Shown here: in pieces, positions 10,892-61,894 of the stretch
Numbering within the stretch: the first letter of the stretch is position 1
How the letters are laid out: the number at the start of each line of letters is the position of its first letter
NCBI GenBank assembly: GCA_038087875.1
Contig: CM075988.1
Span: 2,666,001-2,730,000 of the forward strand
Reading direction: 5' to 3'
Source of the DNA: Malacoraja senta
Taxonomy: Eukaryota
Length of the DNA stretch: 64,000 nucleotides
Made by a program: the position numbers and the translations under genes
Notes under the pieces: generated by a model
What the model was told of the DNA's origin: nothing
The model's input: the letters and a program-made list of their open reading frames with translations, nothing else
The model's database searches: none

Positions 10892-11099
10892 ATAGGAAGG
10901 AACTGTAGACGCTGGTTTAAATCGAAGACAGGCACAAAATGCTGGAATAACTCAGCGGGACAGGCAGCATCTCTGGAGAGAGGGAATGGGTGACGTTTCG
11001 GGTGGAGACTGAAGGAGGATCTCGACCCGAAAAGTCACCCATCCTTCTCTGTAGAGATGCTTCCTGTCCCGCTGAGTTATTCCAGTGGTTTGTGTCTAT
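10892..11099. mobile_element. Penelope-tail-derived palindromic short element
   Basis: Inverted arms CACAAAATGCTGGAATAACTCAGCGGGACAGG / CCTGTCCCGCTGAGTTATTCCAG, similar to 18191-18316; centre at a degenerate hammerhead core. Confidence 0.8.
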
Positions 11100-11548
11100 T
11101 AATGTGTACTTACGTTTACCATAGAGAGGATGAGCAGAGGAGAATGTAATGGAGGCTAAAGAGACCAGCCTAGACACTGCTGTCTGATTCTAAGGTCATT
11201 GATGCGTGAAGGCCCCAGCGGCGTTAGGTTGAAAATAGACACAAAAAGCTGGAGTAACTCAGTGGGACAGGCAGCATCCCTGGATAGAAGGAATGTGTGA
11301 CGTGACCCTTCTTCAGACGTTAGGTTGGAACTTGACTCTCAGCAACGCTCTGCCCTTTCCCTATGTCCCATGATCACTTTTGTATTACTCCACCTACAGT
11401 GGTGGGTTCGGGACTCCAATGTCCCATGAATGGGCTGATCACTTTGAATATTAAATAACAAATATAAATGATTGTCTTGGCTGGAACAGGTTAAGACATC
11501 AAGTTGAACATGTCAAGTTAAACCTGAAAGTCAATGAGTGATTAATTC

Positions 11549-11816
11549 AGTTTAAAGATACAGTGTGAAAACAGGCCCTTCAGCCCATTGAGTCCGCGCC
11601 GACCCACGATCAGCGTACACTAGTTCTATTATGCAACTAAATGCAATTTGCAGAAACCTTTCGGGTGTAGGAGGAAATCGGAGCACCTAGAGAAAACCTA
11701 TGCGGCCGCAGGCAGAACGTACAAAACTCCGTACAGACAGCGCCCGAAGTCAGGATCGAACCCGGGTCTCTGGCACTGTAAGGCAGCAACTCAACTGCTG
11801 CGCCACCGTGCTGCCC
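11549..11816 (-). mobile_element. tRNA-derived V-SINE (HE1-like)
   Basis: A box TGGCGCAGCAG, B box GGTTCGATCC, V-type core, CR1-like tail GGGCCTGTTT..CTGTATCT. Confidence 0.85.
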
Positions 11817-11887
11817 TGTGACTCTAACCTCAGCCCAACTGACATCCAGTACCACTTGCAAACATCTCCCAATGCCTGGAGCACTGG

Positions 11888-12086
11888 TGGGTTTGGGGGT
11901 CAGTGTGGGGTGGGGATGGGGTCAGTGTGGGGGTGGGGGTGGGGGTCAGTATGTGGGTAATGGGGTCAGTGTGGGGGTGGGGGTCAGTGTGGGGGTGGGG
12001 GTCAGTGTGGGGGTGGGGTGGGGTTAGTGTGGGGGTAATGGGGTCAGTGTGGGGGTAACAGGGTCAGTGTGGGGGTGGGGTCAGTG
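11888..12086 (+). repeat. G-rich tandem repeat (GGGGTCAGTGTGGGGGT)n, G-quadruplex-prone
   Basis: Many G4-G5 runs separated by short loops. Confidence 0.9.
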
Positions 12087-12582
12087 TGAGAAGGGAGATG
12101 GGGGTCTGTCAATCCTCCTTTCATGGTCTCACCAGAGGCTGGGGCAAAGAGTTGAGACCTCACTAGGCTGTCACTGTGTAAGACCCTCCCCATCCGACCT
12201 TCTGGCCACAACCAACATCCCCCAAGCTGCTGCTCTCACGGTGGCTGAGATGCGCGTGGACCTGCTGAGATGTTGTCTGGTCCACTGTTCTCAGATGACT
12301 TTTACTATTACAAGCAGTGAGTTGACTTGGATGTGAGCTGGAGACTGACATCTACACTGGAGATGATCTCGGCAGAGGCTGAGTGCAACGTCCAGTTGGA
12401 ATTACTGGCTTTGCACATGAGGGTTTAGTACAAGACAGAACATGCACGTTGAAGAAAGCAGAATTCATCCTTCATGTATGGAGATGGCTTGCAACTGTTG
12501 GGGTCGGAGAATAGGGAGAACACATCTGGTTTCCACGCAGCACCATTGTTCTCATCCTTGCATTCTCTGCAGATACTTCCTC

Positions 12583-13048
12583 TGTGTGTGTGTGTGGGGG
12601 TGGGGGTGGAGGTGTGTGAGGGGTGCGTGTGTGTGTGTGTGTGGGGGGTGGGTGAGAGTGTTTGTGTGTATGTGGGGGGGGGGGTGGGTGGGGGGATGTT
12701 GTGTGTGTGTGTGTGTGGGGGGGGGGTTGAGCATGTGGGTGGGTGTGTGTGTGTCTTTGTGGGGGGAGGGGTGTTGTGGGTGTGGGTGTGTGTGGGGGGG
12801 TGCGTCGTGTGGGTGGGTGGGGGGGTGTTTGTGTGTGTGTGTGGGGGGGGTGGGGGGATGTTGCGGGTGTTTGTGTGTGGGGGGTGCGTTGAGCTTGTGG
12901 GTGGCTGTGTGTGTGTGGGGGGGTGTTTGTGTCCGCGTGAGTGCATGCTTGCGTGCGTGCGCGTGTGTGTGTGTGTGTGCGTGTGTGCGTGCGCGCGCGT
13001 GTGTGTGTGCGTGTGTGCGTGTGTGCATGCGCGTGCGTGTGTTGTGTG
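12583..13048. repeat. Complex (GT)n/(G)n/(GC)n low-complexity tract
   Basis: Direct reading; source of the spurious His/Thr/Pro and Val/Cys/Gly ORFs. Confidence 0.95.
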
Positions 13049-17938: not shown

Positions 17939-18283
17939 TCACTCGTATCAAGGAGCTTGCTGGTAAACTGGATAATGCCTTTTACAAAGGGATTGTTTAT
18001 GGTTGTTGGAGATTCATCGGCTTATCCTCAGGATATCACTGAAGGAGATCCAGCAGAGACGATGGCCTCCTATGACATAGCCATTTTATGGAGATTTTGT
18101 GCCTGCCCGGGGATGTCCAAGATCATTAATAACTTGGATGTGAGGCAGGAGTCATGATCTTCATGAAGATCACTAAAGAGGCAGAGTTTTAAAGAAGGAA
18201 CTGCAGATGCTGGAAAATCGAAGGTACACAAAAATGCTGGAGAAACTCAGCGGGTGCAGCAGCATCTATGGAGCGAAGGAAAT

Positions 18284-18320
18284 AGGTAACGTTTCGGGCC
18301 GAAACCCTTCTTCAGACTGA
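18284..18320 (-). ncRNA. Minimal type I hammerhead ribozyme motif
   Basis: CUGAAGA core, one extra A, stem II GGG/CCC, GAAA, palindromic AACGUU helix III; helix I is only about 2 bp. Confidence 0.65.
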
Positions 18321-18431
18321 TAGGGGGTGGGGAGAAGAAAGGAAAAAAGGAAAAGGCGGAGGAGGAGCCCGAGGGCTGGGGGAGGGGAGGAGACAACCAG
18401 ATGGCTGATGAAGGGGAGGGGACAGCCAGAG

Positions 18432-21209
18432 CTAGCAGAATTGGGAGAATTCAACGTTCAGGCCACCAGGATGTAGACTGCCCAAGCGGAATATGAGGTG
18501 CATTTCCTCCAATTTACGGTGTTGCTCGCTGTGGCCATGGAGGAGACCCAGGACAGAGAGGTCAGATACGGAATGGGAGGGGGAGTTGAAGTGCTGAGCC
18601 ACCGGGAGTTCAGGTTGGTTATTGCGGACCGACCGGAGGTGTTCGGCGAAACGATCGCCAAGCCTCCGCTTGGTCTCACCGATGTAGATCAGCTGGCATC
18701 TAGAGCAGCAAATGCAATAGATGAGGTTGGAGGAGATGCAGGTGAACCTCTGTCGCACCTGGAACGACTGCTTGGGTCCTTGAATGGAGTGGAGGGGGGA
18801 AGTGAAGGGACAAGTGTTGCATCTCTTGCGGTTGCAAGGGAAAGTACCAGGGGAGGGGGTGGTATGGGAGGGAAGGGAAGAATTGACAAGGGAGTTACGG
18901 AGGGAGCGGTCTTTGCGGAAGGCAGACATAGGGGGAGATGGGAAGATGTGGCGAGTGGTGGGGTCACGTTGGAGGTGGCGAAACTGACGGAGGATCACTT
19001 GTTGTATGTGACGGCTGGTGGGGTGAAAGGTGAGGACTAGGGGGACTCTGCCTTTGTTGTGAGTGGGGGGATGGGGAGAGAGAGCAGTGTTGCGGGGTAT
19101 GGCAGAGACCCTGGTGCGAGCCTCATCTATGGTGGAGGAGGGGAACCCCCGTTCCCTGAAGAATGAGGACATTTCAGATGCCCTGGTGTGGAACGCCTCA
19201 TCCTGGGAGCAGATGCGGCGTAGACGGAGGAATTGGGAGTGGGGGATGGAGTCCTTACAGGAAGCAGGGTGGGAAGAAGTGTAGTCCAGATAGCCATGGG
19301 AGTCGGTAGGTTTGTAGTGGATGTCGGTAAGGAGTCTATCACCTGCGATGGAGATAGTGAGGTCAAGGAATGGTAGGGAAGTGTCGGAAATGGTCCAGGT
19401 GTATTTGAGTGCCGGATGGAAGTTGGTGGTGAAGCGGATGAAGTCAGTCAGTTGTGTGTGGGTGCAGGATGTGGCACCAAAACAATCATCGATGTAGCGG
19501 AGGTAGAGGTCGGGGATGGGGCCCTGGTACGCATTGAACAAGGATTGTTCTACGTACCCGACAAAGAGGCAGGCGTAGCTGGGGCCCATGCGTGTGCCCA
19601 TAGCTACGCCTTGTATTTGGAGGAAATGGGAGGAGTCAAATGAAAAGTTATTAAGTGTAAGTACCAGCTCCGCTAGGCGGAGGAGGGTGTCAGTGGCCGG
19701 GTATAGATTGCTTCTACGGTCGAGGAAAAAACGGAGGGCTTTGAGACCATCCTGGTGGGGGATGGAGGTGTACAGTGACTGGACGTCCATGGTGAAGATG
19801 AGGGGGTGATGGCCTAGAGAGTGGAATGCGCGGAGATGACGGAGAGTGTCTGAGGTGTCTTGAACATAGGTGGGGAGGGATTTAACCAAGGGGGATAGTA
19901 TGGCGTCGAGGTAGGTGGAGATGAGTTCGGTGGGGCAAGAACAGGCAGAGACAATGGGTCTACCGGGACAGTCAGGTTTGTGGATTTTGGGGAGAAGGTA
20001 AAAGCGGGCTGTGCGGGGCTGGGGAACGATGAGGTTGGAGGCTCGTTCGGGCAGGGCGTGGGAGTGGATGAAGTTGGTGATGGTGCTGGAGATGGTGGCC
20101 TGGTGCTCGTCAGTGGGGTCATGGTCCAGGGGTAAGTAGGAAGAGGTGTCCGAGAGTTGGCGCGTGGCCTCAGCTTTGTAGAGGTCGACGCGCCAGACTA
20201 CCACGGCACCTCCCTTGTCGGCGGGTTTGATAACCCAATCTAGGTTGTTGCGGAGTGAGTCGATGGCAGTGCGTTCAAGGGGGGAGAGATTGGAGTGAGA
20301 CAGGGGAGTGGAGAAGTTGAGGCGGTTGATGTCACGGCGGCAGTTTTTAATAAAGAGTTCTAAAGCCGGAAGGCTACGAGGGGGGTTCCATGAGGATGGG
20401 GTGCGTTGGAGACGGGAAAAGGGGTCATCAGTGGGGAGCGAGGACTCCTTCCCATGGAAGTGAGCTGTGAGGCGGAGGCGACGGTAGAAGCGTTCCAAGT
20501 CATGGAGGGCACGGAACTCATTGAGATGGGGACGGAGGGGGACAAAGGTATGACCTCTGCTGAGGACAGACCGTTCGATGTCGGAGAGGGGGAGGTCGGG
20601 GGGGATGGTGAACACCCGGCAGGGATGGGGGTTGGGGCCGGAGGAAGGCAGGTGGGTGGAATGGGGACGGGGTGATGTGTGGTGGGGGGGTGGTGGGTGG
20701 TCAGGGGGTGGGGGGGTGAGAGGGCAGTGGTGTGGGTGTGGAAGAGAAGTGGTCCCATAGTTGGAGAGGGATGGGGAAGAATCAGTGGAACTGCCACTGA
20801 GATAACCAGGGCTAGGCAGACTAGCGCTAGGACCCAGTGGAGTCAAACCCAGGAGAGTGGGAGTGAGCAGCGTGGAGGCTTCAGGCCCAGTACAGAGTCC
20901 AGTTTGCAGGTAAGGCGACGGCTGCGGGCTGCTGGAGGGAGGTGCAGTGGCGAGGGTCAGCGGACCCGACGGTCGGGGTCCGTGGGCAGTGTAGTCGGGG
21001 TCGGTGGGGCTGGAGGGCGTTGCAGTGGCGAGGGTCGGCGGACCCGATGGTCGGGGTCCGTGGGCAGTAGAGTCGGGGTCCACGGGCGATGCGTGGGAGG
21101 TCCCGGTAGGCGGATGGTCGGTGGGGCGGCGCGGTTCGACCAGCCCGGTGAGGCGACGGGGTGAATAGGGTGCGGTGCGGCGGCCAAGTTCGTGGAGCCC
21201 CGGTCCCAT
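18432..21209 (-). CDS. Penelope-type reverse transcriptase plus GIY-YIG endonuclease, 925-codon open frame (start codon uncertain)
   Basis: IKPADKGGAVV, FYLLPKIHK..PGRPIVS, TMDVQSLYTSIP, QGVAMGTRMGPSYA, YLRYIDD, PFLDL, CNRKRCNTC linker, NLIYCI..IYIGETKRRL..RFAEH. Confidence 0.92.
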   Translation of the reverse strand: MGPGLHELGRRTAPYSPRRLTGLVEPRRPTDHPPTGTSHASPVDPDSTAHGPRPSGPPTLATATPSSPTDPDYTAHGPRPSGPLTLATAPPSSSPQPSPYLQTGLCTGPEASTLLTPTLLGLTPLGPSASLPSPGYLSGSSTDSSPSLSNYGTTSLPHPHHCPLTPPPPDHPPPPHHTSPRPHSTHLPSSGPNPHPCRVFTIPPDLPLSDIERSVLSRGHTFVPLRPHLNEFRALHDLERFYRRLRLTAHFHGKESSLPTDDPFSRLQRTPSSWNPPRSLPALELFIKNCRRDINRLNFSTPLSHSNLSPLERTAIDSLRNNLDWVIKPADKGGAVVVWRVDLYKAEATRQLSDTSSYLPLDHDPTDEHQATISSTITNFIHSHALPERASNLIVPQPRTARFYLLPKIHKPDCPGRPIVSACSCPTELISTYLDAILSPLVKSLPTYVQDTSDTLRHLRAFHSLGHHPLIFTMDVQSLYTSIPHQDGLKALRFFLDRRSNLYPATDTLLRLAELVLTLNNFSFDSSHFLQIQGVAMGTRMGPSYACLFVGYVEQSLFNAYQGPIPDLYLRYIDDCFGATSCTHTQLTDFIRFTTNFHPALKYTWTISDTSLPFLDLTISIAGDRLLTDIHYKPTDSHGYLDYTSSHPASCKDSIPHSQFLRLRRICSQDEAFHTRASEMSSFFRERGFPSSTIDEARTRVSAIPRNTALSPHPPTHNKGRVPLVLTFHPTSRHIQQVILRQFRHLQRDPTTRHIFPSPPMSAFRKDRSLRNSLVNSSLPSHTTPSPGTFPCNRKRCNTCPFTSPLHSIQGPKQSFQVRQRFTCISSNLIYCICCSRCQLIYIGETKRRLGDRFAEHLRSVRNNQPELPVAQHFNSPSHSVSDLSVLGLLHGHSEQHRKLEEMHLIFRLGSLHPGGLNVEFSQFC

Positions 21210-21554
21210 GTGGTGACTGGCTGAGAGTGACTCATCATGTGGGAGATGTACAGGCCCTCTATGCTATTGATTATTATTGCCATGTGTGCTGCCAAACATG
21301 AGTACAACCAGCCATACTCAAGTACAGCATGTAGTGCAGAGAGAAAAATGCCAGAGGGCAGAATATAGTGTTGCCGCTACAGAGAAACTGCAGGTAAAAA
21401 AGTGCAAGGGCTGCAGTGAGATAGGTTGGGAGATTGGAGTTATACTCATGACTAACAAAAGGTCCATTGAAGAATCTGATAACAAATGTAAGGAGCCATT
21501 CCTGTATCTGGTGGTACGTGCTTTCAAGGTTTTGTATCATCAGCCTGACGGGAG

Positions 21555-31750: not shown

Positions 31751-31756
31751 TACAGA

Positions 31757-31956: not shown

Positions 31957-33194
31957 CCTCTGCATGTTGTCTGAGAGGAAGGTAGATGTAGACTGCAACA
32001 TCATTTGAGAAACATCTGATCACCAAGGCATGGAAAGTCACAGACCGAGCACTGGTAAATGTGATTAATGCAGATGGACGGCATGGATGTGCAGGGCTGA
32101 ATGGCCTGTTTCCTAGCTCTCTGACTTTCCGAGGTTGTGGGGCTGGTGGGAAGTGTGTAATGTGGGTGTGTAAGGAGCTCTGTAGCTCAGCATTTCATGA
32201 GGTGTAATCAGTGCGTGCTGTGGTGCTATAAACAGACGCCATATCATGTGTACAATAGCTATGTACAAAATGGGCAAGTGTGAAATGGGCAGGTAGTGCA
32301 AGGGTGAGTTTACATGAGGTGGGGCAGGTAGTAATGATGGAAGGGTTCCTTCGCTCCATAGATGCTGCCTCACCCGCTGAGTTTCTCCAGCATTTTTGTC
32401 TACCAGGTGTTTATTGATGTGAAGATGGGATGTGTGAGCTGGGGCATGTAAACTGCAGGAGCAGATCTGTAAGCATTATAGTGTACAACAGCGTAGAGTC
32501 AAACCGGCCGGTACAGTGAGCGGAGTTTAATGGATGCGTGTGACAGACTGAACATGAAACGGACAATTCACCTGCACATGAGATTTATCCCCACCTGGGT
32601 TAGTTTCTTTCCTTCTCTCCCAGTCACTGCCTGAACTAACAAGCCCTCTCATCTCCACAGTCAGTCTCTACAGTAACATTCCCTCTCATCTCCACAGATT
32701 TACTCCTATGGTTGAAGCAGCCAGGTTGGGAATTATTTCCCTGAAAGTTGCCTCTTCGGTATTTTGAGGCTGAAAGCTGACTGACTGTCCTGTCATCGCC
32801 CTGGGTCTGTTCACACCTTCAACTCTGATCCTATCCCCCCCCCCCAATGTTTAAGGATCTGCCACAGGTCCGGGGAGGACCAAACCATGGTCAGCTCATC
32901 TGTAGGCTGGGCTCTGTTGAACTGCCCTGACCATTCCCCCTCTCTCTCCATCCGTCCCCTACCACCAGCCGTCCTGAATCGCTATCTACTTCACTGGAGA
33001 CCCTCGGACTATCTTTGATTGGACTTTACTGGTTCTAAACGTTATTCACGTTCTTCCCTTTATCATGTATCCATACACTGTTGATGACTCGATTGTAATC
33101 ATGTATTGTCTTTCTGTTGACTGGTTAGCATGCAACAAAAGCTTTTCACCTCGGTTCACGTGACAATAAACTAAATTAAACCCTAGTCGGCCTT

Positions 33195-33482
33195 CTAGTT
33201 TCACTGTTTGTATCCACTCGTTATCGCCTCCTCCACAGCCAACAATGGACCATTGTGGGCTCCACCATTCCTTGATCATCGTTGCTGGCTTTGATTTGTT
33301 CTTTTTACATTCATTTGTTCTTGTACCTTTTCATTCATTTGTTCTTTGTACCTTTTCATACCTCCAGTTTCCCCTTCCCCTGACTCCCAGTCTGAAGAAG
33401 GGAGTCGACCCAAGACGTCGCCAATTCCTTTTCACAAGAGATGCTGCCTGACCCGCTGAGTTACTCCAGCACTTTTTGTCTA
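33195..33482 (+). mobile_element. Penelope-tail-derived element with degenerate hammerhead
   Basis: CTGAAGAAGGGAGTCGACCC..GATGCTGCCTGACCCGCTGAGTTACTCCAGCA. Confidence 0.7.
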
Positions 33483-34860
33483 ACTTCCACTTCCAGTATG
33501 TTGGGTGGATGAAGTTACCTCTGGTGGTGGTATTTCATCCCATCTTCACATAGATGGTGGTTCTGGCCGGGGCACTGATCTCGGAAAGCATGTCCAGCGC
33601 TCGTGGTGCCCTATATAACCCCACGTAGACATATTGGAGTCTTGACTGAGTCAAGACACTGGGACACATCTGTATTTATGATTCACCTTCTCGTGTTTCC
33701 TGGAAACATCCCAAAGCACCTCCCACATACAGATTACAGTGCAGTGTCTGATCAAAGGCTATCTGCGGAGGAAGCTGTGAAATCAGAGAACGAGTTGGAG
33801 TTTCAAGTGGAGAACTTGAAAAGCCTTTCACAAAAGAGTGGTGTATAGGAAGGAACTGCAGATACTGGTTTAAACCGACGATAGACACAAAATGCTGGAA
33901 TATCTCAGCGGGACAGGCAGCACCCCTGGATAGAAGGAATGGGTGAGGTATCCACTGTGAATGGCTCGATTCTAATGCATCGTCTTTCCGTTGGCTGGTT
34001 TGCACGCAACAAAAGCTTTTCACTGCACCTTGGTACACATGACAATAGTGACAATACTCTGGCTATCTCGCTTCCTGCAAACTGTGCTAACTGGAGGCTG
34101 TTCACAGAGTCGGGGTCAATGGTCATACTGTCCCAGTAACAATCCCTCTCACCTCCACAGTCAGTGTTGAGAGTAACAATCTCTCTCACCTCCAATGGTG
34201 GTAAGGAGATGTTGAGGAAAAGGATGAGACTGAGACATCAGCAGCCTGAAGCATTGGCTGTTTTCCTCCTCACAAGCGCGTAACATTGCAAGCGATTGCT
34301 GCAAATCTTATTTCTGATTTCGGGCAATTGCAGTGTTTCTGTCTCAGAGAAAATAAATCTGGAAAGAACACTGTCCATTTCTACCAGCTGGTGTCATCTG
34401 AGGCAACAAAGTAGGACAGACGTGGTTACAATGCTGGGTACCTAGCAGGTAACCTGGAAAACATGCCCAAAGAACTGCAGAAGCTGGTTAATACATGAAA
34501 GGACACAAAGTGCTGGAGTAACTCAGAGGGTCAGACAGCATCTCTGGTTAACGTGGATAGGTGATGTTTTGGGTCGAGAGCCTTCTTACCAAGGAGATGC
34601 AAAGTGATGAATATTTTCAACATAGTCTTTGACTTACACTTTAGGAATAAGTGTTCTTTATTGGCTCGAGTCTGCACAAGGCTTCAAACACCAGAAATGC
34701 TTTGGAAGCTTGAAGAATTTTCATAAATGCATTTCTTTCTGAGAATGCATTTGACATCAGGGGATGTTGGGCAGGGCAGGGCTGGAGGAACAGCATCTTC
34801 AGAACATTGAATAGCTAAAGGAGCTACATGGCCAGAAGTCCCACACTGCTGATGGACTCT

Positions 34861-35270
34861 GCACCTGTCCATCTGTCTGATCTGGAAGTCCCTGGATGGA
34901 GTCAAAGGAGGAGGTATAGGGACATGTGTTAAATCTCCTGAGGTTGCAGGGGAAAGTAGCTGGGGAGGGGGTGGTTTGGGTGGGAAAGGACGAGTTAACC
35001 AGGGAGTTGTGGGGAGAGTGGTCTCTGTGGAATGCTTAGGGGAAGGGAAGATGTGCATCTATATCCCCCCACCCTCTGGCTTTACATTTCACTCTTTCTC
35101 CTTTTCTGAAATCCTTTTGTCCCTTTGTTCTGCCCCCCACCTCTTTTCCAGCATCCCCCCCCCTACAACAATCAGTGTGAAGAAGGGTTCTGACCTGAAA
35201 CATCGCCTGTCTATTCCTTGCACAGATGCTGCCTGACCCGCTGAGTTACTATAGAACTTTGTGTTTTGCT
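34861..35270. mobile_element. Decayed Penelope fragment: minus-strand EN-linker piece joined to a plus-strand tail
   Basis: 34890-35055 resembles 18780-18950; tail GTGAAGAAGGG..GATGCTGCCTGACCCGCTGAGTTAC is in the opposite orientation. Confidence 0.65.
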
Positions 35271-41215: not shown

Positions 41216-42748
41216 CAACGGAGTGGAAGGAGTTTGTCGATGACCTTGCTTGCACTCACATTGTGTGATGATGACAATGTGTCCCCGTTGACAATGAAGA
41301 CAGCAGTCATCTGTGTACACGTCCTTATCTAGACACTGTCTGACTCAACTGATATTTCAAGAAGGGATGGAATGGAAATGCTGTTATACTCTGGTGGTGA
41401 TTGTGCCGACTGGAAACTGTCTGTGCTGTCTCCTGCGGCACTTCCTGCAGGGAAGGGGCGAGGGTGTAAGACCATCCAGCGATCGTGAAGTCCACATCTA
41501 TCAAATGTTTCACTAAGGTTGACAGAACAGCACATCCTGTACCTCCCCTGGATCCTTCCAGCTTCCCACATCTATCCAGATGTGTGCCTCCTCACTACAG
41601 GACCTTCACCAACCCTGTCCTCCCCTGGATCCACCCTCTTCACCCAACCACCAAATCCTTACCTCAACTTTTGCCCTATCCTTGCCCTCAGCCATCACCC
41701 CAAACCTTGGCTCCTCACACACTACCCCTTCACTCCCCTCAACCCGTCCCACACGCACTACTCCATCCTGTAACTCAACCCTTCACTCATTCCTCAAACC
41801 ATTCCCTCATCCCTCAGCCCATCCCCTGAACCCAACATCTCACCCTGACCAGGTCCCTCCACTCACCTTGACCATTGCTCACCCTCAACACCCTCTTCCC
41901 TCAACACACAACCTCTCGCTCACCCTTCCCTTCCCTAGTAAGCTTCCCTACACATCCTGCACCAACCCAAATTAAGGTAACATCTAACAACCCCCCCCTT
42001 CCCTTCCCCTTCCTCCCCCCCCTCCCCACCCCAACATAAATCAATACCAATACCATCAGCACACAAGCTCTATCAGGACCAAAGAACAGGAAGGCAGCAT
42101 CCGTGGAGAGAGAAGCATCAGAGGGAAATCAGATACTTGGCAAAGTGATAAACTAGATGCAAAGAACGAGGAAAGGGTAAAACAAAAATGTAAGATAGGA
42201 GAGGGCGGAGGGCAGGAGTGGCGTCATTCTCGGTAGGGTGACAGTGCAAGGCAAGGGTGGGTGGTGGAGGGGTGGTGACGGATGTGATGAAACAAGTGTT
42301 CCATGCAGGAGAGCTACAGGTGGGAGAGTGACCTGAAGGAAATATCCAGATGCTGAAAATCTGATACTTTTAACTATGAAGGTAACTATTAACCAAATGC
42401 TGACACCCAGTGAAGGGTGGGAGGAAGATCTATTTCCTCTACTCTACATGAACCCGAAGAAGGGTCCCAACCCGAAACGTCACCTATCCACGTTCTCCAG
42501 AGATTCTGCCTGACCCGCTGAGTTACTCCAGCACTGTGAGGTTTTTTCTACGTAACCCCTTTCTCCTGAGAAAGTTAACTTTCCTTTTTACTGCACAATT
42601 AACGGCACACTGAAGAAAAGCTGTTCCCAATAAAAGCAGGGCCAATTTTTAAGTGGAGTGTAGTGGGTGGAGGAGTTGGGCAGCAGCTGTGGCCATAAAA
42701 CCTGTCTCACGTGTACAGCTGTGTAGCGACCAGCCTGACTGACAGAGG

Positions 42749-44258: not shown

Positions 44259-44260
44259 AA

Positions 44261-44825
44261 AGCGGATGCAACAGATGAGGTTGGAGGAGGACACAAGCAG
44301 TCGTTCCAGGTGCGACAGAGGTTCACCTGCACCTCCTCCAACCTCATCTATTGCATCCGCTGCTCTAGATGTCAGCTGATCTACATCGGTGAGACCAAGC
44401 GTAGGCTTGGCGATTGTTTCGCCGAACACCTCCGCTCGGTCCGCATTAACCAACCTGATCTCCCTGTGGCTCAGCACTTCAACTCCCCCTCCCATTCCGA
44501 ATCTGACCGTTCTGTCATGGGCCTCCTCCATGGCCAGAGTGAGCACCACTGGAAACTTGAGGAGCAGCACCTCATATTCCACTTGGGCAGTCTGTATCCC
44601 GGTGGCCTGAACATTGACTACGCCAATTTCCGGTAGCCCTTGCTGTCTCCTCCCCTTCCCAGCTCTCCCTCAGCCCTCTGGCTCCTCCTCTTCTTTTCTT
44701 CTTCCCGCACCCCCACCCCACCCTGCATCAGTCCGAAGAAGGGTTTCGGCCCGAAACGTTGCCTATTTCCTTCGCTCCATAGATGCTGCCGCACCCGCTG
44801 AGTTTCTCCAGCAATTTTGTCTACC
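44261..44825 (+). mobile_element. 5'-truncated Penelope copy (GIY-YIG plus tail) with a 30-bp inverted 5' segment
   Basis: KQSFQVRQRFTC..IYIGETKRRLGD, nearly identical to the C-terminus of the 18432-21209 ORF; 44261-44290 is the reverse complement of 44332-44361 (1 mismatch). Confidence 0.92.
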
Positions 44826-46002
44826 CAACACGTTGTCTGTCCATTCCCACCACAGAGGTTGCCTGACCCGCTGAGTTCCTCCAGCACTTTGTGTTTCATT
44901 CTGTCTACCCTAACTGTGCCTCTAATCATTTTTTGTCAACTTCTATCAGGACTTCCCTCAACCTTTTATCTACCAGCAAAAACAATCCAAGTTTGTCCAA
45001 TCTTTCCTTTTCGCTAACACCCTCTAATCACGTAAACCTCTTCTGCACCCTACCCAAATCCTCCACATCTTTCCTGCAATGTGGTGACCAGAACTGCATA
45101 CAGTATCTGCACATGTACAGCAGCAGATTGCCTGACTCTTATACTCAATCACAGCTGCCCCCACTGAGGTAGTCCGGGGACTGAACAATCTGCTCACATT
45201 ACAATTCACTCCGTATGCTCATTTACCTTTTTTTTTTTTACTGCATATCAATAAAGTTAATCAGCAAAAGTTAACAATCTGAAAATAGTAAAATAATTTA
45301 AGATCAATGATGAAATGATCTTGGATCAAAAAAACAGGCTGTTATTGAGTCTGCAGAACTGACAGGAGTTTTAATAATGGTTTCAAACCAATGATACTGT
45401 CTGACATATGCAAACATGATTGATAATCACCATTTAAAATGAAGAATCTGCTCTTTGATTCCATTATTTGAAGCAGGGATGTACTGTAGTTGCCTTGGAA
45501 CCTGTGTAGAGAGGGTTCACTGGGCTGGTTGCTGGGATGAATAGAGTTGTACCACAAAAAGACTGAGTGAAATAGGTGGAGACTGACTGGGGTGAGAAGG
45601 CTGGAGACTGGAGTTAGTAGACTGGGCACTGTGGAGTGAGAGGGCTGGAGACTGATCGGAAGGCTGGAAGCTGAATCCCCCTGAGATACACATGTTCTCA
45701 GATAGAGAGCAACCAGGGATGCTGAGAGTCCACACTGGCCATTGATCACCCGTTCACACTAGTTCTCTGTTTTCTACCTACTCCCAAGTCATCCCTCCCC
45801 CTCAGCCTTTCCCTCAGCCCCAACCCTTCTATTAACTTTTCACCCACCTTGTCCTTCCTGACTCCTGACCTTTTCTCGCCCTGACTCTTCTATCCCTCAC
45901 CTCACACTCACCTTTCAAACTTTTCCTCTCTTCTGCCTCTTGCATCAATCAACAAACTATCAGCCCCTAACCCATTCCTGTTGGAGACAGGTAGCTCACA
46001 TC

Positions 46003-48540: not shown

Positions 48541-50836
48541 CATAGCCTTCACATCTTTCACAGAGCCCCAAGTAGGGGCTCTACACCTCGTTCTGTAGCC
48601 TGTTGGCTTCACTCTGTTGGCTTCACGCTCGGATCTTGTGCAGGAGGACCTGACCTGGTTTGGGAATATGTTTGAGAGCAGGCAGTAAGCCTTTGGAGCA
48701 GTGTTCCTCACGGAGGAGCTGTCACCCAAGGTTAGGGCAGGCTTGGATGGAATTTCCAAACTGGCAGATGACAATTACTACAGGGGTGGGAGATTGCAAC
48801 CTTCCCTGTTCCGACGAATGCAATCAACCTGACGTGCACAATCAAGTAAGTACAATTACTACTACGCTCCCTTTCAATCCAATCTTGATTACTATAGGAC
48901 ACCTTATCAAATGCCTTCTGGAACCTCGTGAGCACCACATCAACCCCATTCCCCTCATCCATATTTCTGTTACTTCTTCCAAAAGAATAAATCAAATTTA
49001 GTAGACATGAATTGCTTTTAACTTCTAGAGTTATAGTAATACAGCATAGAAACAGGTCATTCGGCTGATCAAGATGCCCCATCTACGCTAGTCCCACCTG
49101 CCAGTGTTTGGCCCATATCCCTCTCAACCTTTATCTTGCATGATCTGTTTATTTACTACCAACACATCATTCAATAATGTCATTGACAGTAAATCCTTTT
49201 CAACGTAGTTTTAATCAGAAATCTTAAAGAAAGATATGACCATTCTTCATCGATCGTACCTCAGAGCAGTCTGATTTGAAGCACTTCCCCACATTTAACC
49301 ATTCACTAAAGAATCAAGCACTTCCTTCTGTGACGGGTGTCAGAGGTTATGGGGAGAAGGCAAGATAATAGGGGTTGGAGGGAGAAATAGATCAGCCATG
49401 ATTGAATGGCAGAGTAGACTTGATGGGCCGAATGGCCTAATTCTACGCCTATCACTTATGATCTTATGACTACAGCTTAATCCAATTGAAGACACAAAGT
49501 GCTGGAGTAACTCAGTGTGCCAGGATTATATCATATCCATGCTGACTTTCTCTAATTGCCCCGTGTTGGTACAAGCGACTGCTAATTCTGTTCTGATTAT
49601 TTCTTTCTCCACTTTAGGGATAATCTGACTGGGTTGATCGTTACACCCTTTGTTGAATAAGGGTGCAACAGTGCAATGTTCCAGTCCTGGGCTATCACTC
49701 CTGAATTTATGGGTGTTCAGGATAATTTGGTCAGAACCACTGCCATTTCTTCCCTTGCTCCTCTCAGCAGTGTAGGACACATCCCATCCAGACTGGACAC
49801 GTCCATTCTAAGTGCTCCTGGACTAGCCTTTCTAATGGAACCTATTGGTTTTAAATGATGTGGGATCTCAGCTGCCTCTTCCTTTGCTTTGACCCCAGCA
49901 ACATCTGTGGTGGACACCACGTTGAAATCTCTAATGAAGGGTGCAATGCGAACACTGTGAAAAGAATAATGGAACTGAGCAGAGATAGACACAAAATGCT
50001 GGAGCAATTCAGTGGGTCAGGCAGCATCTCTGGAGAACATGGATAGGTGCCGTTTTGGGTCGTGATTGTAGCAAGGAGAGTGGGGTATACCCATGCCTGG
50101 AGTGAGGTGAGGGGGTCCAAGGCCTCCAGCAGACTGAGGACTCGCTCATCGAGGATGAAGGACCTGCCCGGTAGTCCCGGCTCGCCGACCGCAGACTCCG
50201 ACTCGGCCCGGAGACACCGGCGTCGACATGACCCGTGCCGCGGAGAGCGAGGAAGGACATCTGAGCAACCAGCGAGAGCGAGAAAGGCCATCGGTGAATG
50301 AAGGGGGACCTGGTGGCGGGGGGAGCTGCCGAGAACAAAGTGGGACTGGCGAGGGAGGGGGGAGGGAGGCTTGCAGTCATGTGCAGCGGCAGGCAGTAGA
50401 GAGGACTGTTCCGTGAACTTTTGTAACTTTGTCAGTGCCAAAACGTGCCGACTCTTGTGTACCGCCTCGGTGAGGTCTGCTGTTTTATTTTACTGGGTTG
50501 TATGCAAAACAAAGCAGTTCACTGTACCAAGACACATGTGACAATAAAGTATCATTGAATCAAATCATTGAATCATTGAAAAATACTGGAAGCGTAAAAT
50601 CAGCATCTGCAGTTTTTTCTCACAATTGGATTGAGCCGACTCAGTGTGAAACATATTTGACTAATATACTGATGTTCTTTGAGGATGTGACTGACAGAAT
50701 AGATAGGGAGGAGCCAGTGAATCTGCTGTAGATAGTTATATAGCATGGAAACAGGCCTTTAAGCCCAACTCATCCATGTTGACCAAATGTTGTTATTGGA
50801 CCTGACACAACCATTTCTTTCGGCGGCTCTTTAGTC

Positions 50837-53590: not shown

Positions 53591-54949
53591 TATGTTAAGT
53601 CAAGTTAAGTAACAAGTTTACATGTCAGGTCGGGGGGAGTTCCCCCTGCCACTGGTACCATGTAATCCCGTGCTACCTGCTCCATGGTCGGATAGTCGGC
53701 GACTAAATCGTCTCCCCCACCTGGTGTGCCAGGTGCGGAGGGGGGCTGTGGACCCCCAGCAGGACCAAAAACAAGACCAGTCAAAAGGGCGGATGAGCTT
53801 CTAGCGAGCCAACAGCCATCCACACTTCAGTAGAAGTTGCGATTACTGTCGTACATAGCATGGTAAGGAATGATGATAAAGCACACAAACCAAAATCCTA
53901 TACTTCCAGCAGCGGAAGTCTGCAGGAACTGGAGGGCAGAGATGTGTGGTGCGTCCGTCACTGTTCCCGTCAGAAACCAGCACCACTGCGACGCCAATGT
54001 TTTCAACGATGATGAATGAAGTTAAGTAAAGCTAATTAGTTGGGATGACGTTACAGCTGTACAACACAGGGGTGAAACTGAAGGATATGATTAAGCTCAT
54101 GACTATGCAGAAAAGTTTCACAGATTTAGCTAGGACTGAAGGGCTTGAGTTATAATGAGAGACTGGATAGGCTGGGACACATTTCCCTGGAATGAGATGT
54201 GGTGTGGGTGAATTTTTAGAAGTTTATAAAATCATGAGGGGTATAGATAAGTTAGATGGTCACAGTCTTTTATCAAGGGTATGGAGTCTGAAACAATAGG
54301 GCATAGATTTAAGGTGACAGAAGAAAGATTTAAAGGGGACCCTAGGGGTAGGGTTTTTATGCATTGGTTGGTGTGTATGCGGGGCGAGATACCAGAGGAA
54401 GTGGGTAGGGGAAAGGTACAAGTGCAAAGTTTGAAAGACATTTGGACAGGATCATCGATGGGAAAGGTTGAGTGGAATATGGGCAAATGTAGGTAGTAAG
54501 GAAGACACCTTGGTCAGCAGGAACGGGTTGGACCGAAGGGCCTCTTTCTGTGCTCTATAACTACATTCTATTGACAACACTGATGTAGAGACCATCCTTA
54601 CCAATTCTGGAGATGTTTGTGTAGATTACAGAGAAAATAATTGAAGTTTGTCCAACCTCTCCTGGTAGCTAATACCCACTAATCCAGCCAGCATTCTCGT
54701 AAACTGTAGACAAAATAAACCACAGATGCCGGCTCTCAAAAAGAGACATAAAGTGCCTGGGCAACTCAGCAGGTCAAGCAGAATCTCTGGGGAACGTGGA
54801 TAGGTGATGCTTTGGGTCGGGCCCCTTTTTCAACTTTCTGATAAACCTCTTTTGCCCCAAAGCCTCGACATCCTTCCTGCAATGGGGTGACCAGAACTGC
54901 ACACTTTACTCCAAATGTGGCCTGATGGCCTGACCCTTAACACTGGTGT

Positions 54950-56540: not shown

Positions 56541-56679
56541 ATGCATCCAGTCCAATAAAGCTGCAAAATGACTTCCTTACACTTATATTCGAAGCCTCAT
56601 AACAATTTTGCCATACATTAGTACATTTTCAAATGCATGCAGATATTTAAAATCTTCATAAAATACTGCATGTAAAATA

Positions 56680-57010: not shown

Positions 57011-57564
57011 TGGGCATAAGATGCTAACTGATGAATTTGAGTTCAAACATGGTTCAGATTCAAATCCTCCTCATTCTGCTCGCTGTGTGCATCTGGCATG
57101 AAATTAGATTATGCCGTCACCATTTTTTATCCATCACAAAAAAAAGAAACTGCTCATATTTTGTTTCAGGTGACGTTAATTTGTGAGACTCTGTGAGGGC
57201 GGCAAAAAGAGATGTCACACTGTTGGGGTCAATTGGTCTCATTATTCAACCAGGCTGCGGGGAATTTCCGCTCGGTGTAAACATGCTAGAAAGCAGTTTA
57301 CTCTCCATGAAATGACCAACATTTAACATCCTCTGCCTGTTCCAAAAACGAGGCGGATGGATGATTTGATTTGGAACAATTATTGCCGATTTGTGTGCAG
57401 AAACAGCAGGCCATGTACAGGTACGTGACTACGGTAATACAGCAACTATAGACTGGGAATTAATATTGCCATGTTCCCCTGTGGTGATGCCAATTTTAAT
57501 TCCTGGCCAATTATAGTAATTGCATCCTTGTTTAAGGCCTGCAGAGTACAAAGGAGAAATCAGT

Positions 57565-57996
57565 GATAGACACAAAAACCTGGAGTAATTCAGCAGGACA
57601 CATGGCAGCATCTCCGGAGAAAAGGAATGGGTGATGTTTCGGGTTGAGACCCTTCTTCAGTGTTGGCAATGAAGAATAGAATGGATATTAAAAAGGGAGT
57701 GCAGTTGTTCAATCTGGGAAACAAGGCAGATACTGGAAACATGAGATACAATTACAGATAGTAAATGTGTAAATTAAAAAGGGTGCCATTTCTGAGGTTG
57801 AGATGCAAGGAACTGCAAATGATGATCTCCAAAAATAACACAGAGCTGGAGTAACTCAGCAGTTTAGGCAGCATATCTGGAATTCATAGATAGGTGATAT
57901 TTTAAGTCGGGTCCTAAGAAGGGTTCTGACTGGAAATGTCATCTATCAACATCTTCCAGAGATCTGCTTGACCTGCTGAGTTACTCCAGCACTCTG
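57565..57996. mobile_element. Two Penelope-tail derivatives: single arm at 57565-57661, palindrome at about 57805-57996
   Basis: Minus strand 57630-57660 reads CTGAAGAAGGGTCTCAACCCGAAACATCAC; the second element has inverted arms. Confidence 0.75.
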
Positions 57997-58984
57997 GGCT
58001 TTCTTTATTTCCCAATTAAATCTGTTTCTGTTTCATTGGAAGAGTTTATCTTCCAGAAGCAATGTCTTACTAACAAGCCTGAAACTTCAAAGGAGACGGT
58101 GCATTTGGATTGCAATTTGCAAAGAGGCCTGTGATATGCACTCCTCACACAACACAGCTCCCGTCCCTGCCTGCCTGAACTGCCTGCCACCACAACACAG
58201 GGACATAGATAAGGGGCTCATTTGCAGCAGAGCTGAGTGCAGTGGAAACTGACACGAGATTATTTAGTATTATCACAAAATGGAAATAGAATGAATGAAA
58301 TTCCCCTCCACTTGTCAGATGACATTTCCAAGGTTGAGGCTGACAGTTAGAACATGAAGATTGGTATCGATGGCTCAGAACAAAACCAGGTAAGTGGAAT
58401 TATGAAGCAGGATATTTGTAGGAAGGAACTGCAGATGCTGTTTTGATTTGTTCTTCTTCTTGCTCTAGAGCTTTTTCCAAATTATACTTTATGGCTCCAA
58501 GAAGTCAGTGGTGTTCACATAGTGATTGTTCAGTCGGACATGGCTGAGTCCGTGGATACAACCAGCCGCATCCTTTGTCATGACACCACTCTCAACTGTC
58601 TGAGCAAACCTCATGAGTTCTTGATTTTACTCCAGCTTTTTGTGTCTATCTAAGAAGCAAGCTAGCTTGATTGGACTTGTGGGAGATGCTCCCAGTCCCA
58701 TCCCTCTACAGTCAGCCTGCTGGCTGATTTGGACCCACTGGGTTGTATGAGGGGATTGAGACACACCATAATCAAAGGGAACTAAAGGTCAGAACAACAC
58801 TGAAAATAAAAGATCATTTTCATTTTTATTAGATAATGAAAATCTGGGGGGATTGTTTGGGTGCTTAATCTGCGATTGGACAGGATACAGCGGGAAATAC
58901 TTTATTCACACAAGGTCAAGGGACATTACAACCAGTGACCTGCATGTGATGTGTGGCATGGCCCGGATGGTTGGGATTATAAGG

Positions 58985-59297: not shown

Positions 59298-60021
59298 GAT
59301 GATAGATGATGATAGATGCCGTCATCTTGTGGCAGCATTTTCCTGATATCACGATGAAGTGTGTAATGTTGGAAGGCAGCGAGCACACACCCAACCTGCA
59401 CGCACGACAAAGTGATGATGAGAAATAACTGGTCCATCAGTGATGGTGGCTGAGGGGCGATTATTGGTCAGGATGGCAGCAAGTACTCATCTCCACTCCT
59501 TAACTGAACACTACAGCACCCTGTATATGTACCTCGGCCCTCTCTTACCCAAAGGTGTAGTCTTGATCTTCCAACCTACCTCATTGTGGACCTTGCACTT
59601 TAAAAAAAATATTTTCACTAACTGCAATGTGGTAACACAATATTCTGCACTCTGGTATTTTTGCTCTATGCACTACTTTTGTACTTGTGCTTTGCTTGAT
59701 TGTACGTATGTATAGTATGATATAACTGAATATAAAGTGTTTCACTGTATCTGGGTACAGGGGACAATAATAAATAAATAAAATTAAGTATGGCAGGCAA
59801 TGAAAATCGGTTGCAGGAGCACTACAGGCACATAGTCTCAGACACACTCAAAAAACATGTGCACAAATTGCACAGAAATTCTACAAGTGTAAAAAAAGCC
59901 TGCAAAGAAAGGCCTTTAGTGCAAAGATATACAATTAGTACACGTTCAAGGTGGTGCAAGAGTTGGTCTGTAGTGTTCCATTGCTCAGGTGGCATTTGGG
60001 TTGTGTGGGTCGGTTCAAGTA

Positions 60022-60335
60022 TGGCACGGTGGCACAGCAGTAGAGTTGCTGCCTTACAGCGCCAGAGACCCGGGTTTGATCCTAACTACGGATGCCGTCT
60101 GCACGGAGTTTGTACGTTCTCCCCTTGACCTGCGTGAGTTTTTTCCAAGATCTTCGGTTTTTCTACCACACTACAAAGACGTACAGGTTTGTAGGTTAAT
60201 TGGCTTGGTATAAATGTAAATTGTATTATTATTATTATTACAGTGTGTGTAGGATAGCATTGCAGGGATCGCTGGTCGGTGCGATTTCGGTGGGGCGAAG
60301 GACCTGTTTCCGCACTGTATCTCTAAACAAAACGA
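60022..60335 (+). mobile_element. V-SINE (HE1-like)
   Basis: Full head, core and tail. Confidence 0.87.
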
Positions 60336-60856
60336 AAAAAAAACCTAAACCTGGGTGTAGGAAGGAAGCTGTTCCTGAAGCTGATGGTGAAGGACCTCAA
60401 GCTTCTGTATCTCCTGCTCGATGGAAGCAATGGGAAGAGGGGGTAGTGGGGATCCCTGATAATATATATTGCCTTCTTGAGGCAGCATCTTCCTGAGACC
60501 ACAATGACGTGTGAAGCTGGGAGAGTGTTGGTTTGGATCCTGGGAGTGGAGGCATCAGCATTGTTGTTCCAGGTGTGGAATAGTGCAGCCCGCTCCAGTA
60601 GGATGCTGCAACTCAGGCTGGCCATCAGTGGCCAACTCAGCAGTGACCAAGCTGAAGTCTGAGCTTCAGGCACCACTGTAGCACCAGCCCCATTGGCCAT
60701 GCTTGTGGCTGTTCATAAGTTCATAAGTTCCGGGAGCAGAATTAGGCCATTCGGCCCATCGTCTACTCTGCCATTAAATCATGACTGATCTTTCTTTCTC
60801 TCTCAAACCCATTCTCCTGCTTTCTCCCCATAATCCCTGACACCCTTACTAAGTGT

Positions 60857-61187
60857 GGCACGGTCTGGCCATCCGCGAGTCACGGCGCCAGGCGGAAGAG
60901 GGCTCTGCCCGAGCCGGCTGCCTGCCCCTTTTCCGGGGATACATCCGCGCCCGGTGGGGTTAGAAAGGGAATATGCCCTGTCCACGGGCACCATGTGGGA
61001 TTTCCTGGACTGCTGAGCACCGCAGAGGGTTGAATGCATCCTCAATAAGGATTGTAACATAGCTGTATAGTAGTTTATTTTGGTTATTTGTTTGTATTGT
61101 ATTATGGTGGTGGGTTCTGGTTTGTTTTATTGTAGTGTAAATATTATTGTTTAATAATTGAATACAATTTTTGATAAATTAAAAAAA
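60857..61187 (+). mobile_element. Tx1-like LINE 3' fragment
   Basis: CCTGCCCCTTTTCCGGGG..CCGCGCCCG homologous to minus-strand 40520-40700; ends in an A-tail. Confidence 0.65.
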
Positions 61188-61190
61188 GAG

Positions 61191-61499
61191 TGGCACAGTG
61201 GCAAAGTGTTAGAGTTGCTGCCTTACAGCGCCAGACACTTGGGTTTGATCCTGACAACAGGTATTGTCCGCACAGTGTTTGCATGTTCTCCTCGTGGCCT
61301 ATGTTGGTTTTCTCCGGAACCTCCGGTTTCCTCCCACACTCCAAAGATGTACAGGTTTGTAGGCTAATTGGCTTGGTATAATTGTAAATTGTCCCAAGTG
61401 TGTGTAGGATACTGTAAGTGTGCAGGGATCGCTGGTTGGCGCGGACTCGGTGGGCGGAAGGGCCTGTTTCCGCGCTGTATCTCCACACTAAACTAAACT
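61191..61499 (+). mobile_element. V-SINE (HE1-like)
   Basis: Full head, core and tail. Confidence 0.87.
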
Positions 61500-61894
61500 T
61501 ATTCATAAGTTGTTCACCCTTCAACGTTGCCGATCAATGTTACAGGGCCTGCAGCAGCCATTGTGTTTGGCTGCTGATCATCAGATGCCAATAGCCTGTT
61601 GTATGTGGCCCGGGTATTCCAGGAGCTCGCACAGTGGTGTGGCCGGGGGAGACGAAGGAGTGTGGAGAGTGAAACAAGCTTCGAAACAGGAGATAGACAG
61701 AAAATGCTGCAGTAACTCAACAGGTCGGGCAGCATCTCTGGAGAAAAAGTAAAGCTGACATGTCAGGTCAGAACCCTTCTTCAAATCAGGAGAAGTCAGT
61801 GGTCTAAGAAGGAAAAGTTGGACCTTGTGGCCCAGAGAACACTCAGTTTGCTATCTTTGTTGTGGAGGATCAATTATCTAAAATAGCTGGAGCA

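Follow-up and report, generated by a model that had tools for sequence, protein, structure and literature searches.

Short copies of Penelope-like 3′ ends in a 64-kb window of Malacoraja senta DNA start preferentially at the 5′ edge of a hammerhead motif

A 64,000-nucleotide (nt) stretch of the Malacoraja senta genome (assembly GCA_038087875.1, contig CM075988.1, positions 2,666,001 to 2,730,000 of the forward strand; hereafter the window) is strewn with short copies of a unit carrying a hammerhead ribozyme motif, some of them arranged head-to-head, and the locus raises the question of what sets the ends of these copies and how they were inserted. The original prediction, made from the letters of the window, described a 90–130-nt unit at 16 sites as a non-autonomous family, resembling either a miniature inverted-repeat transposable element (MITE) or a retrozyme, which was mobilised by Penelope enzymes and bounded by the ribozyme region. 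Its assignment to Penelope holds, as the unit is the 3′ end of a Penelope-like element at 18191–21263. We took as reference the unit at 18191..18318 (minus strand; subfamily A), numbered with +1 at A18318 of TCAGTCTGAAG; it contains the hammerhead motif, a proximal end near +96 and a tail to +128. Single copies, and each half of a head-to-head pair, are referred to as arms.

A profile search with the unit gave 24 matches at E ≤ 1, and 22 arms, including three head-to-head pairs, scored above 20 bits; the profile was built from 16 of the arms that it then finds. The best score among 21 controls (20 block-shuffled windows and the reversed window) was 7.6 bits. All 16 predicted sites matched the profile, the copy placed at 44860 corresponding to 44830–44897; this copy was missed by blastn with the 18100–18700 tail alone, which matched the other 15 of the 16. 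Copies beyond those predicted were found at 35834 and 49489, together with a tail-only piece at 58422–58440. The arms are decaying and, at about 100 nt each, the 22 cover about 3% of the window.

The 5′ starts of the arms, which were curated by hand, are concentrated at one place, as had been predicted. Ten of the 22 arms start within 8 nt of AGTCTGAAG, at +7 to −1, where 0.55 were expected, a rate about 17 times the background. Expressed as start events per nt at risk, the counts were 10 in 82 nt at +7 to −1, 7 in 989 at +60 to +8, 3 in 492 at −2 to −151 and 2 in 188 around the predicted ribozyme cut. The excess at +7 to −1 over the remainder (10 events in 1,481 nt) has a binomial P of 1.8 × 10⁻⁸, or 4.7 × 10⁻⁷ after multiplication by 26 for the choice of this interval, and is far from the uniform distribution of breakpoints that had been named as counter-evidence. 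For seven of the ten hot-spot boundaries the position is set by a target duplication or the opposite arm; restricted to these seven, P is 1.3 × 10⁻⁵, with one of them (at 42456) depending on a weak duplication (p = 0.064). A loss of homology against upstream sequence of another kind could mimic an excess of starts, and for the copies at 33388, 35171 and 49985 the upstream limit is an approximation. Sequence upstream of the hot spot is retained in five arms, and 17 of the 22 start at or downstream of −1. Near the cut, at +27 to +36, the rate was 0.0106 starts per nt against a background of 0.007, which is no excess. The pile-up of starts lies about 30 nt upstream of the predicted cut, just before the hammerhead motif. 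The ribozyme region therefore does mark the unit boundary in the sense that starts accumulate at its 5′ edge, but not in the sense that they accumulate at the cleavage site.

Contigs of four public sequencing runs (X1, X2, X3 and X6, the last two with 79 and 94,291 contigs, respectively) were aligned on 18130–19330, and those of two of the runs (X1 and X2) give the same boundary; the counts were taken from 24 of the 3,921 loose-end entries and are lower bounds. At least 221 contigs of X1 leave the reference behind 18317, continuing into long, mutually unlike, AT-rich sequence, and at least 183 contigs of X2 leave it behind 18318, likewise into unique flanks. The two positions are the AG of TCAGTCTGAAG (18317..18318, minus strand). 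The X1 number is similar to that of contig ends at the true 3′ end, 18192 (at least 230). Agreement among the flanks at 18317/18318 was low (0.32–0.33), indicating that they share no upstream exon. Ends behind 18320 and 18321 carry the untranslated regions (UTRs) of other subfamilies and match, by eye, the copies at 33388 and 35171. No contig end at the predicted cut site appeared among the matches listed.

The minimal type I hammerhead motif of the reference unit occupies 18287..18316 (minus strand) and consists of CUGAAGA at 18315–18309, stem II and GAAACGUU. Type I hammerheads cleave after GAAACGUH; the predicted cut lies between 18288 and 18287, that is, between +31 and +32. The minimal motif as defined previously (PMC4209133), comprising CUGANGA, stem II, GAAA, the palindromic N15.2–N16.2 and UH, is complete in 1 of the 22 arms, the 18191 copy, in agreement with the prediction that most cores carry substitutions. 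Helix I consists of 2 contiguous bp in 5/5 copies checked, as against 3–7 bp in 102 of 124 cores from metagenome contigs (see below), and the 4–5 bp expected of a minimal type I hammerhead were not found in any of the five. As Rfam yielded no hammerhead match at its gathering score, and only three chance matches at E ≤ 10 around the unit, we call the ribozyme by its motif. The 3′ half of the unit (18191–18270) is predicted to form a long stem with its partner in the tail, and the end of the tail can pair with +6 to +13 (z = −2.3); this structure is a candidate protein-binding fold. In runs X1 and X6, which represent two organisms, we also noticed joints of 18319 to 18288/18289, possibly a tandem duplication of the 31-nt hammerhead core or else inverted junctions. 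If they are tandem duplications, a dimeric ribozyme might be possible.

At the other end, the arms stop at +88 to +100 in 14 of 22 cases, at +124 to +136 in 5 and in between in 3. Two 3′ ends 30–40 nt apart are the optional tail of Penelope pseudo-long-terminal-repeat (pseudo-LTR) insertions. In the lizard element PAc (Poseidon from Anolis carolinensis), the tail has been tied to two internal start sites of reverse transcription; the PAc enzyme cuts and extends both target strands, ribozyme cleavage is dispensable for insertion in vitro and RNA reads did not end at the ribozyme cut (PMC11167929). A search for target-site duplications, which the original prediction had proposed, revealed variable, retrotransposon-type duplications of 10 to about 20 bp. 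Among 18 insertions, compared with 3000 random pairs, four had duplications at p < 0.02 (11, 10, 16–17 and 14 bp), four at p = 0.058–0.066 and ten none, the lengths overall being 10, 11, 12–13, 14, 16–17 and about 20 bp. There was no fixed TA or 8-bp duplication of the kind that would have tied the copies to a DNA transposase. As their length varies, the duplications fit target-primed insertion rather than transposase action.

The three predicted inverted dimers are real, although their centre is the hammerhead 5′ edge or stem II and not the catalytic site. In P1 (10888..11100; subfamily B), flanked by an exact 11-bp duplication at 10877–10887 and 11101–11111, the left arm is tailed and starts near +16, and the right arm is untailed and starts at +1 to +4. 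Both arms of P2 (46372..46558; subfamily C) start at AGT, are separated by a 7-nt spacer and have no tails. In P3 (57806..58001; subfamily C) the left arm, tailed, starts near +16 and the right arm, untailed, at +5 to +7. Two of the three pairs are thus asymmetric, with a tail of about 35 nt on one arm, and the tailed arm has the later start in both P1 and P3. Watson–Crick pairs occupy 68/79, 73/87 and 54/70 aligned columns in P1, P2 and P3, respectively; the longest perfect runs in the three pairs are 23, 20 and 18, and the RNA fold z-scores are −17.2, −17.8 and −9.6. The two arms belong to one subfamily in 3/3 pairs (chance P about 0.06). Arm identities within the pairs are 0.84, 0.80 and 0.73, and for five of the six arms another copy is equally close or closer. 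Homogenisation of the arms can be discarded, as the two arms of a pair resemble each other no more closely than they do other members of their subfamily; for the same reason, the sequences give no sign that the hairpins, which the original prediction, supposing them to be transcribed, put forward as possible Dicer or ADAR substrates of about 85 bp, are maintained.

The arrangement of the window palindromes matches the published one, in which inverted pseudo-LTR copies stand head-to-head, their junctions being palindromic and one end bearing a tail (PMC3846280, PMC8557442) and hammerheads occur in pairs on opposite strands (PMC4209133); a tail at one end was found in 2 of the 3 window pairs. 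Two cDNAs (complementary DNAs) are the simpler account of the tailed/untailed pairs, because copying one arm from the other could not supply a tail that the template arm lacks. The P1 junction, GAGAC|TGAAG, would fit a cDNA end at +1 that paired with AGAC in stem II. Alternatively, P1 and P3 may have arisen by later deletion at the centre of a perfect hairpin. A 30-nt inverted duplicate (44261–44290 versus 44332–44361; 97%) lies at the 5′ truncation of a young Penelope copy and fits fold-back of the cDNA on a 3-nt microhomology; as it sits inside the open reading frame (ORF), inversion is not confined to the ribozyme.

We then considered whether the arms form one family. In a tree of 20 of the 22 arms (35834 and 49489 being too short), 12 of 17 forks were open. 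Clade A (18191, 44726 and 32346) is young and starred (100/99) and holds both long and short copies; clade B is weaker, and C is a label for the loose remainder. The short arms come from three or more subfamilies, all of which also include copies extending into the 3′ UTR. A non-autonomous family with master copies of its own would show derived variants that its short copies share and autonomous copies lack, and the single family that had been proposed is not demonstrated by this tree. The arms are not MITE-like. A MITE has terminal inverted repeats that are symmetric and a duplication whose fixed length corresponds to a transposase; the unit copies in the window have neither, and their arms are asymmetric. 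What defines retrozymes is the tandem arrangement of units that each contain a complete hammerhead (PMC7229834; bioRxiv 10.64898/2026.07.22.740005), and the window contains no head-to-tail tandem units of this kind. The sole adjacent arms on the same strand (44726 and 44830) belong to different subfamilies and have a target duplication between them. Judged by the window starts and the contig ends, the unit is not bounded by the cleavage site either, and with its 2-bp helix I and the absence of a start excess at the cut, the retrozyme-like label does not apply.

The open frame of the parent (18432..21263, minus strand; 943 amino acids from stop to stop) has a reverse transcriptase (RT) domain, a CX2-5CxxC linker and, at its C-terminus, an endonuclease of the GIY-YIG type. 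Its motifs include DKG, YIDD, CNRKRCNTC at residue 810 and YIG at residues 860–862; the RVT_1 match (28 bits) is under the Pfam cut-off. By these sequence features, with RT and C-terminal GIY-YIG endonuclease in one ORF, the parent is an endonuclease-bearing Penelope-like element and, because it has the CX2-5CxxC linker ahead of the endonuclease, a criterion described for these groups (PMC8557442), it is of the Neptune/Nematis type. The closest named relative is from the shark Chiloscyllium punctatum (68% identity), and 652 of the 8000 candidates scored were homologues, some with PF01541. As homology to relatives begins only near residues 190–217 and the unit profile had no match near 21263, that is, no pseudo-LTR on the 5′ side of the ORF, this copy is likely to be 5′-truncated. 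Between the ORF and the reference unit lies a pyrimidine-rich, subfamily-specific 3′ UTR (18319..18431, minus strand), for which the corresponding sequences of other subfamilies are found in the loose contig ends behind 18320 and 18321. Depth over the unit is several-fold that over the ORF, a ratio that is not a copy number, as other subfamilies map to the unit only. The possibility that the unit encodes the N-terminus of the ORF was rejected, since the best blastx match (E = 0.035) was not at any N-terminus and the homologues' N-termini gave no match. General background on Penelope elements is available elsewhere (PMC8969392, PMC5753468, PMC6765202).

A scan for the core motif in other DNA found 1 locus in viral and 123 in metagenome contigs, all from other Penelope families; the downstream motif of our unit occurred in no stretch of either the viral or the metagenome contigs. 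The 124 loci carry 126 distinct cores, and 44 have a protein match within the locus. An inverted arm lies upstream of the core in 24 of 109 cores with enough upstream sequence (18 loci) and downstream in 0 of 113. Of the 18 inverted loci, five have no reference for one arm, L058 has one reference only and L024 is cut by the contig end, leaving 11 measurable pairs. Exactly one arm has the longer 3′ end in 11/11 of these, and it is the arm with less upstream sequence in 7/11. For 77 metagenome cores with close relatives, 18 ends fell 0–30 nt upstream (1,967 nt at risk) and 18 at 30–250 nt (7,654 nt), an excess just upstream of the core of about 4-fold (P = 7.5 × 10⁻⁵). The excess is understated, because several of the palindromic loci paired with one another in the comparison and so were scored as long. 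Some loci are perhaps one insertion seen twice. A pile-up just upstream of the hammerhead thus seems to be common among Penelope families, if less sharp than in the window. Loci L062, L029, L123 and L040 are tight hammerhead-centred palindromes (19–31 nt between cores), and upstream of the core their junctions fall at short self-complementary stretches. L001 (1001–1028) places a Penelope ORF end and hammerhead on a contig titled as a bacterial metagenome-assembled genome, and is likely to be animal DNA.

What produces the boundary? We favour, at about an even chance, an explanation in which three or more Penelope-like subfamilies left the copies as short, now decaying insertions of their 3′ ends (pseudo-LTRs), with 5′ starts piling up where reverse transcription runs off the 5′ end of the RNA, at the A of TCAGT. 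On a transcript that begins at +1, priming sites would lie 96–130 nt from the 5′ end; priming at these internal sites would yield a mini-cDNA ending at +1, and priming at a downstream copy would give ordinary longer truncations. As in the lizard relative (PMC11167929), the RT would start at two internal sites and extend both target strands. Head-to-head pairs would then be, for the most part, two cDNAs, one per start site, joined by microhomology, with some fold-backs. Run-off is favoured because it accounts for a boundary that lies upstream of the cut and recurs in three subfamilies, for duplications that abut the unit and for the lack of any common upstream exon. In Drosophila virilis Penelope, the promoter lies inside the pseudo-LTR and its downstream element contains ACGT (PMC2377424). 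The hammerhead ACGT of our unit is at +27 to +30, a resemblance that we regard as only a lead.

Several points weigh against run-off at +1. We infer, rather than observe, an RNA start there. The initiator is weak: the consensus BBCA+1BW (PMC5287114) is matched in the copy at 33388 and only at 5/6 positions in the A and C types, and nine hexamers of this type occur in the 612 nt of the 3′ end. The described D. virilis start lies 46 nt plus a 75-nt intron further upstream, the intron end abutting helix I (PMC2377424, PMC4209133). Window starts are spread over +1 to +7 and not confined to one base; in other families the pile-up is broader still, 3–28 nt upstream of the core and about 4-fold. The 18317/18318 ends were absent from X3 and X6 among the matches listed, and X1 and X2 are one study, perhaps the window's own source. 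Finally, the pairs need not all be twin cDNAs, because the junction at 44261 resembles a fold-back.

The same by-products might instead owe their boundary to a roadblock met by the RT on a longer RNA, which is possible though somewhat improbable. The roadblock may be a protein bound to the upstream pyrimidine tract plus AG, the edge of a folded ribonucleoprotein domain or G-rich nascent cDNA. A pyrimidine-rich tract does begin just upstream in all three UTR types, +6 to +13 of the reference unit is predicted to pair with the tail end, and both the spread of starts over +1 to +7 and the broader pile-up in other families are more easily understood in this way; however, one would look for a stop on the 3′ side of stem II, near +24, where starts show no enrichment, the listed contig ends fall at two adjacent bases, and 5 of the 15 arms reaching +7 pass the site. 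A 3′ splice acceptor (CAG|TCTGAAG), with copies made from spliced RNA, appears quite improbable. This alternative stays alive because the D. virilis start is further upstream and its intron ends at helix I (PMC4209133), and because in the A, B and C types the core follows a CAG, which itself comes after a pyrimidine-rich tract. Upstream exons joined by splicing frequently have G or AG as their last bases, and such exons would also give ends at +1/+2. Nevertheless, the loose ends share no upstream exon, being AT-rich and mutually unlike as noted; the duplications abut the unit in the copies at 11236, 42456 and 61691, leaving no room for exon sequence; and a strict acceptor pattern missed the site, with only two donor-like motifs in about 1.1 kb.

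Other alternatives concern the nature of the unit. Self-propagation of the minis in the manner of a short interspersed nuclear element (SINE), whereby solo units are transcribed and re-copied with internal priming that needs no defined 3′ end, is unlikely in our estimation. Short arms do outnumber long ones, 17 of the 22 starting at or downstream of −1, putative non-autonomous Penelope-like elements have been described in an alga (PMC8557442) and pLTR-derived retrozymes in vertebrates (bioRxiv 10.64898/2026.07.22.740005). The short arms are not one clade, though, and starred subfamily A mixes long and short copies (in a tree weakened by its open forks); long copies with B- and C-type UTRs are common in the contigs (at least 256 and 242, respectively, in X1), and whatever lies upstream of the start is lost from a solo copy that begins at +1. 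We consider it very unlikely that self-cleavage defines the unit and that linear or circular cleavage products are reverse transcribed, as in retrozymes. The intact core in a young copy and the two arms starting at +27 to +31 (33843 and 44830) would suit this idea; the background-like start rate at +27 to +36, the position of the hot spot upstream of the cut, the short helix I, the lack of tandem arrays in the window and the behaviour of the lizard element, which inserts in vitro without cleavage and whose RNA reads do not end at the cut (PMC11167929), speak against it. Movement of a MITE by a DNA transposase has next to no probability: the three palindromes and an intact Tc1-type element in the window could be cited for it, yet the duplications vary from 10 to about 20 bp, the arms are asymmetric, most copies are single-armed and the unit has no match in the Tc1 element at 5031–6655.

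A bolder extension of the run-off explanation, which we advance only tentatively and hold to be doubtful, is that Penelope-like elements start transcription at the hammerhead 5′ edge, and that their mini-cDNAs integrate singly or in twins in very large numbers and could propagate themselves as the smallest Penelope-driven non-autonomous elements. Since the start would lie only 96–130 nt upstream of the priming sites, every messenger could yield a mini-cDNA resembling a strong stop. If this is true, the minis carry a downstream promoter and a priming signal, and full-length copies would owe their 5′ end to that start as well.

Earlier work has already described Penelope ends that carry minimal hammerheads, both solo and inverted. 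The solo and inverted pseudo-LTRs with an optional 30–40-bp tail in PMC3846280 and PMC8557442 are like those of the window in being heavily truncated at the 5′ end and flanked by short target duplications of variable length, and in having an inverted head-to-head copy, junctions that are palindromic and a tail restricted to one end. In the window, unlike there, each of the two arms is about 100 nt long and most of the 5′ ends fall in one 8-nt interval; the available text of those reports contains no such fixed boundary. PAc shares the pseudo-LTR hammerhead, the two 3′ ends bounding the tail, and is likened through its extension of both target strands, with cleavage not needed in vitro, to an element that we know from its sequence; it belongs to Penelope/Poseidon and its ORF starts at stem II, whereas the window element has the CX2-5CxxC linker (PMC11167929). 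The minimal hammerheads of PMC4209133 have in common with ours the extra base before stem II, the G-C closing pair and the palindromic ACGU replacing helix III, and they are likewise mostly single motifs from truncated elements, with some opposite-strand pairs; the window motifs differ in a helix I of 2 bp, as reported there for D. virilis, and not 4–5 bp, a stem II of about 4 bp and broken cores in 21/22 arms. Non-LTR retrozymes (PMC7229834; bioRxiv 10.64898/2026.07.22.740005) are similar in being non-coding, of Penelope terminal origin, with a type I hammerhead motif and dispersed monomers, and differ in their head-to-tail arrays and in being bounded by the cut site. The family table of the preprint includes one cartilaginous fish and might list this unit, and the unit's family may already be curated in Repbase or Dfam. 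The literature searched, which took in few subscription papers and left Repbase and Dfam aside, held no report of a fixed 5′ boundary at the hammerhead edge or of the unit in a cartilaginous fish.

The copies are real and mostly ordinary Penelope debris, and the sharp start is one new, testable detail. Seen in hundreds of contigs, a sharp 5′ end is a fossil record of the RNA template; it tells ends at the ribozyme cut apart from those at an RNA start or block and speaks against a role of cleavage in the insertions described here. That a single arm of a pair has the tail, and that this arm is often the shorter, supports the making of two independent cDNAs at each insertion. In annotation, the unit is best entered as a Penelope end rather than as a MITE, a SINE or an active ribozyme.

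The remaining copies are as follows. Among the solo arms of subfamily B are those at 11232..11318 (minus; start +2, with an internal deletion and a 10-bp exact duplication abutting both ends), 33841..33949 (minus; tailed, start +27 to +31, close to the predicted cut) and 57535..57660 (minus; start +4 from homology only, decayed tail by eye). Subfamily C is represented at 34468..34587 (minus; tailed, start +7, boundary from homology only) and 42456..42546 (plus; start +4 to +6, a decayed 12–13-bp duplication abutting both ends), and the short young A arm at 32346..32404 (plus) starts at +38 and has a weak duplication of about 20 bp (p = 0.058). Decayed solo arms lie at 54715..54834 (minus; start +5 from homology only, decayed tail by eye) and 61690..61785 (minus; start near +5, overlapped by a decayed 14-bp duplication, p = 0.018). 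The arms absent from the original prediction are short: 35834..35889 (plus) is decayed and starts near +48, and 49484..49524 (minus) is very short; the tail-only fragment at 58422..58440 (minus) is 19/19 identical.

Other arms keep upstream sequence. At 33340..33500 (plus) the copy continues into the pyrimidine-rich UTR of a second subfamily, matching the loose consensus behind 18320, and at 35060..35266 (plus) for about 110 nt into a third UTR type, matching that behind 18321, both with approximate upstream limits; the latter arm stands head-to-head with a decayed Penelope ORF fragment (34793..35055, minus). The arm at 49983..50090 (minus) has lost the 5′ half of the ribozyme and kept upstream UTR letters, as judged by eye, its limit being approximate. 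The 5′-truncated subfamily A copy at 44261..44826 (plus) includes the ORF end and has the 30-nt inverted duplicate at its 5′ junction; a separate short arm (44830..44897, plus; start +27) follows at its 3′ end with a 16–17-bp duplication (p = 0.0097). This insertion of an arm of another subfamily exactly at the 3′ end of an A copy (44814–44914) raises the possibility of targeting to Penelope ends.

The window has other repeats as well. The Tc1/Sleeping Beauty-type element at 5031–6655 encodes an open 343-amino-acid transposase (5253–6284, minus) between 224-nt terminal inverted repeats that are 98% alike, and looks young. Two open frames lie at 3125–4463 (plus), the second with a Cys-rich knuckle-like motif and the first without a Pfam match. 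A tyrosine-recombinase fragment at 25997–26608 (minus), beside 79-nt inverted repeats (25491–25569/25714–25792; 96%), is perhaps part of a DIRS-type element, and nested inverted repeats of 193, 64 and 40 nt, 86–93% complementary, occupy 47610–48539.

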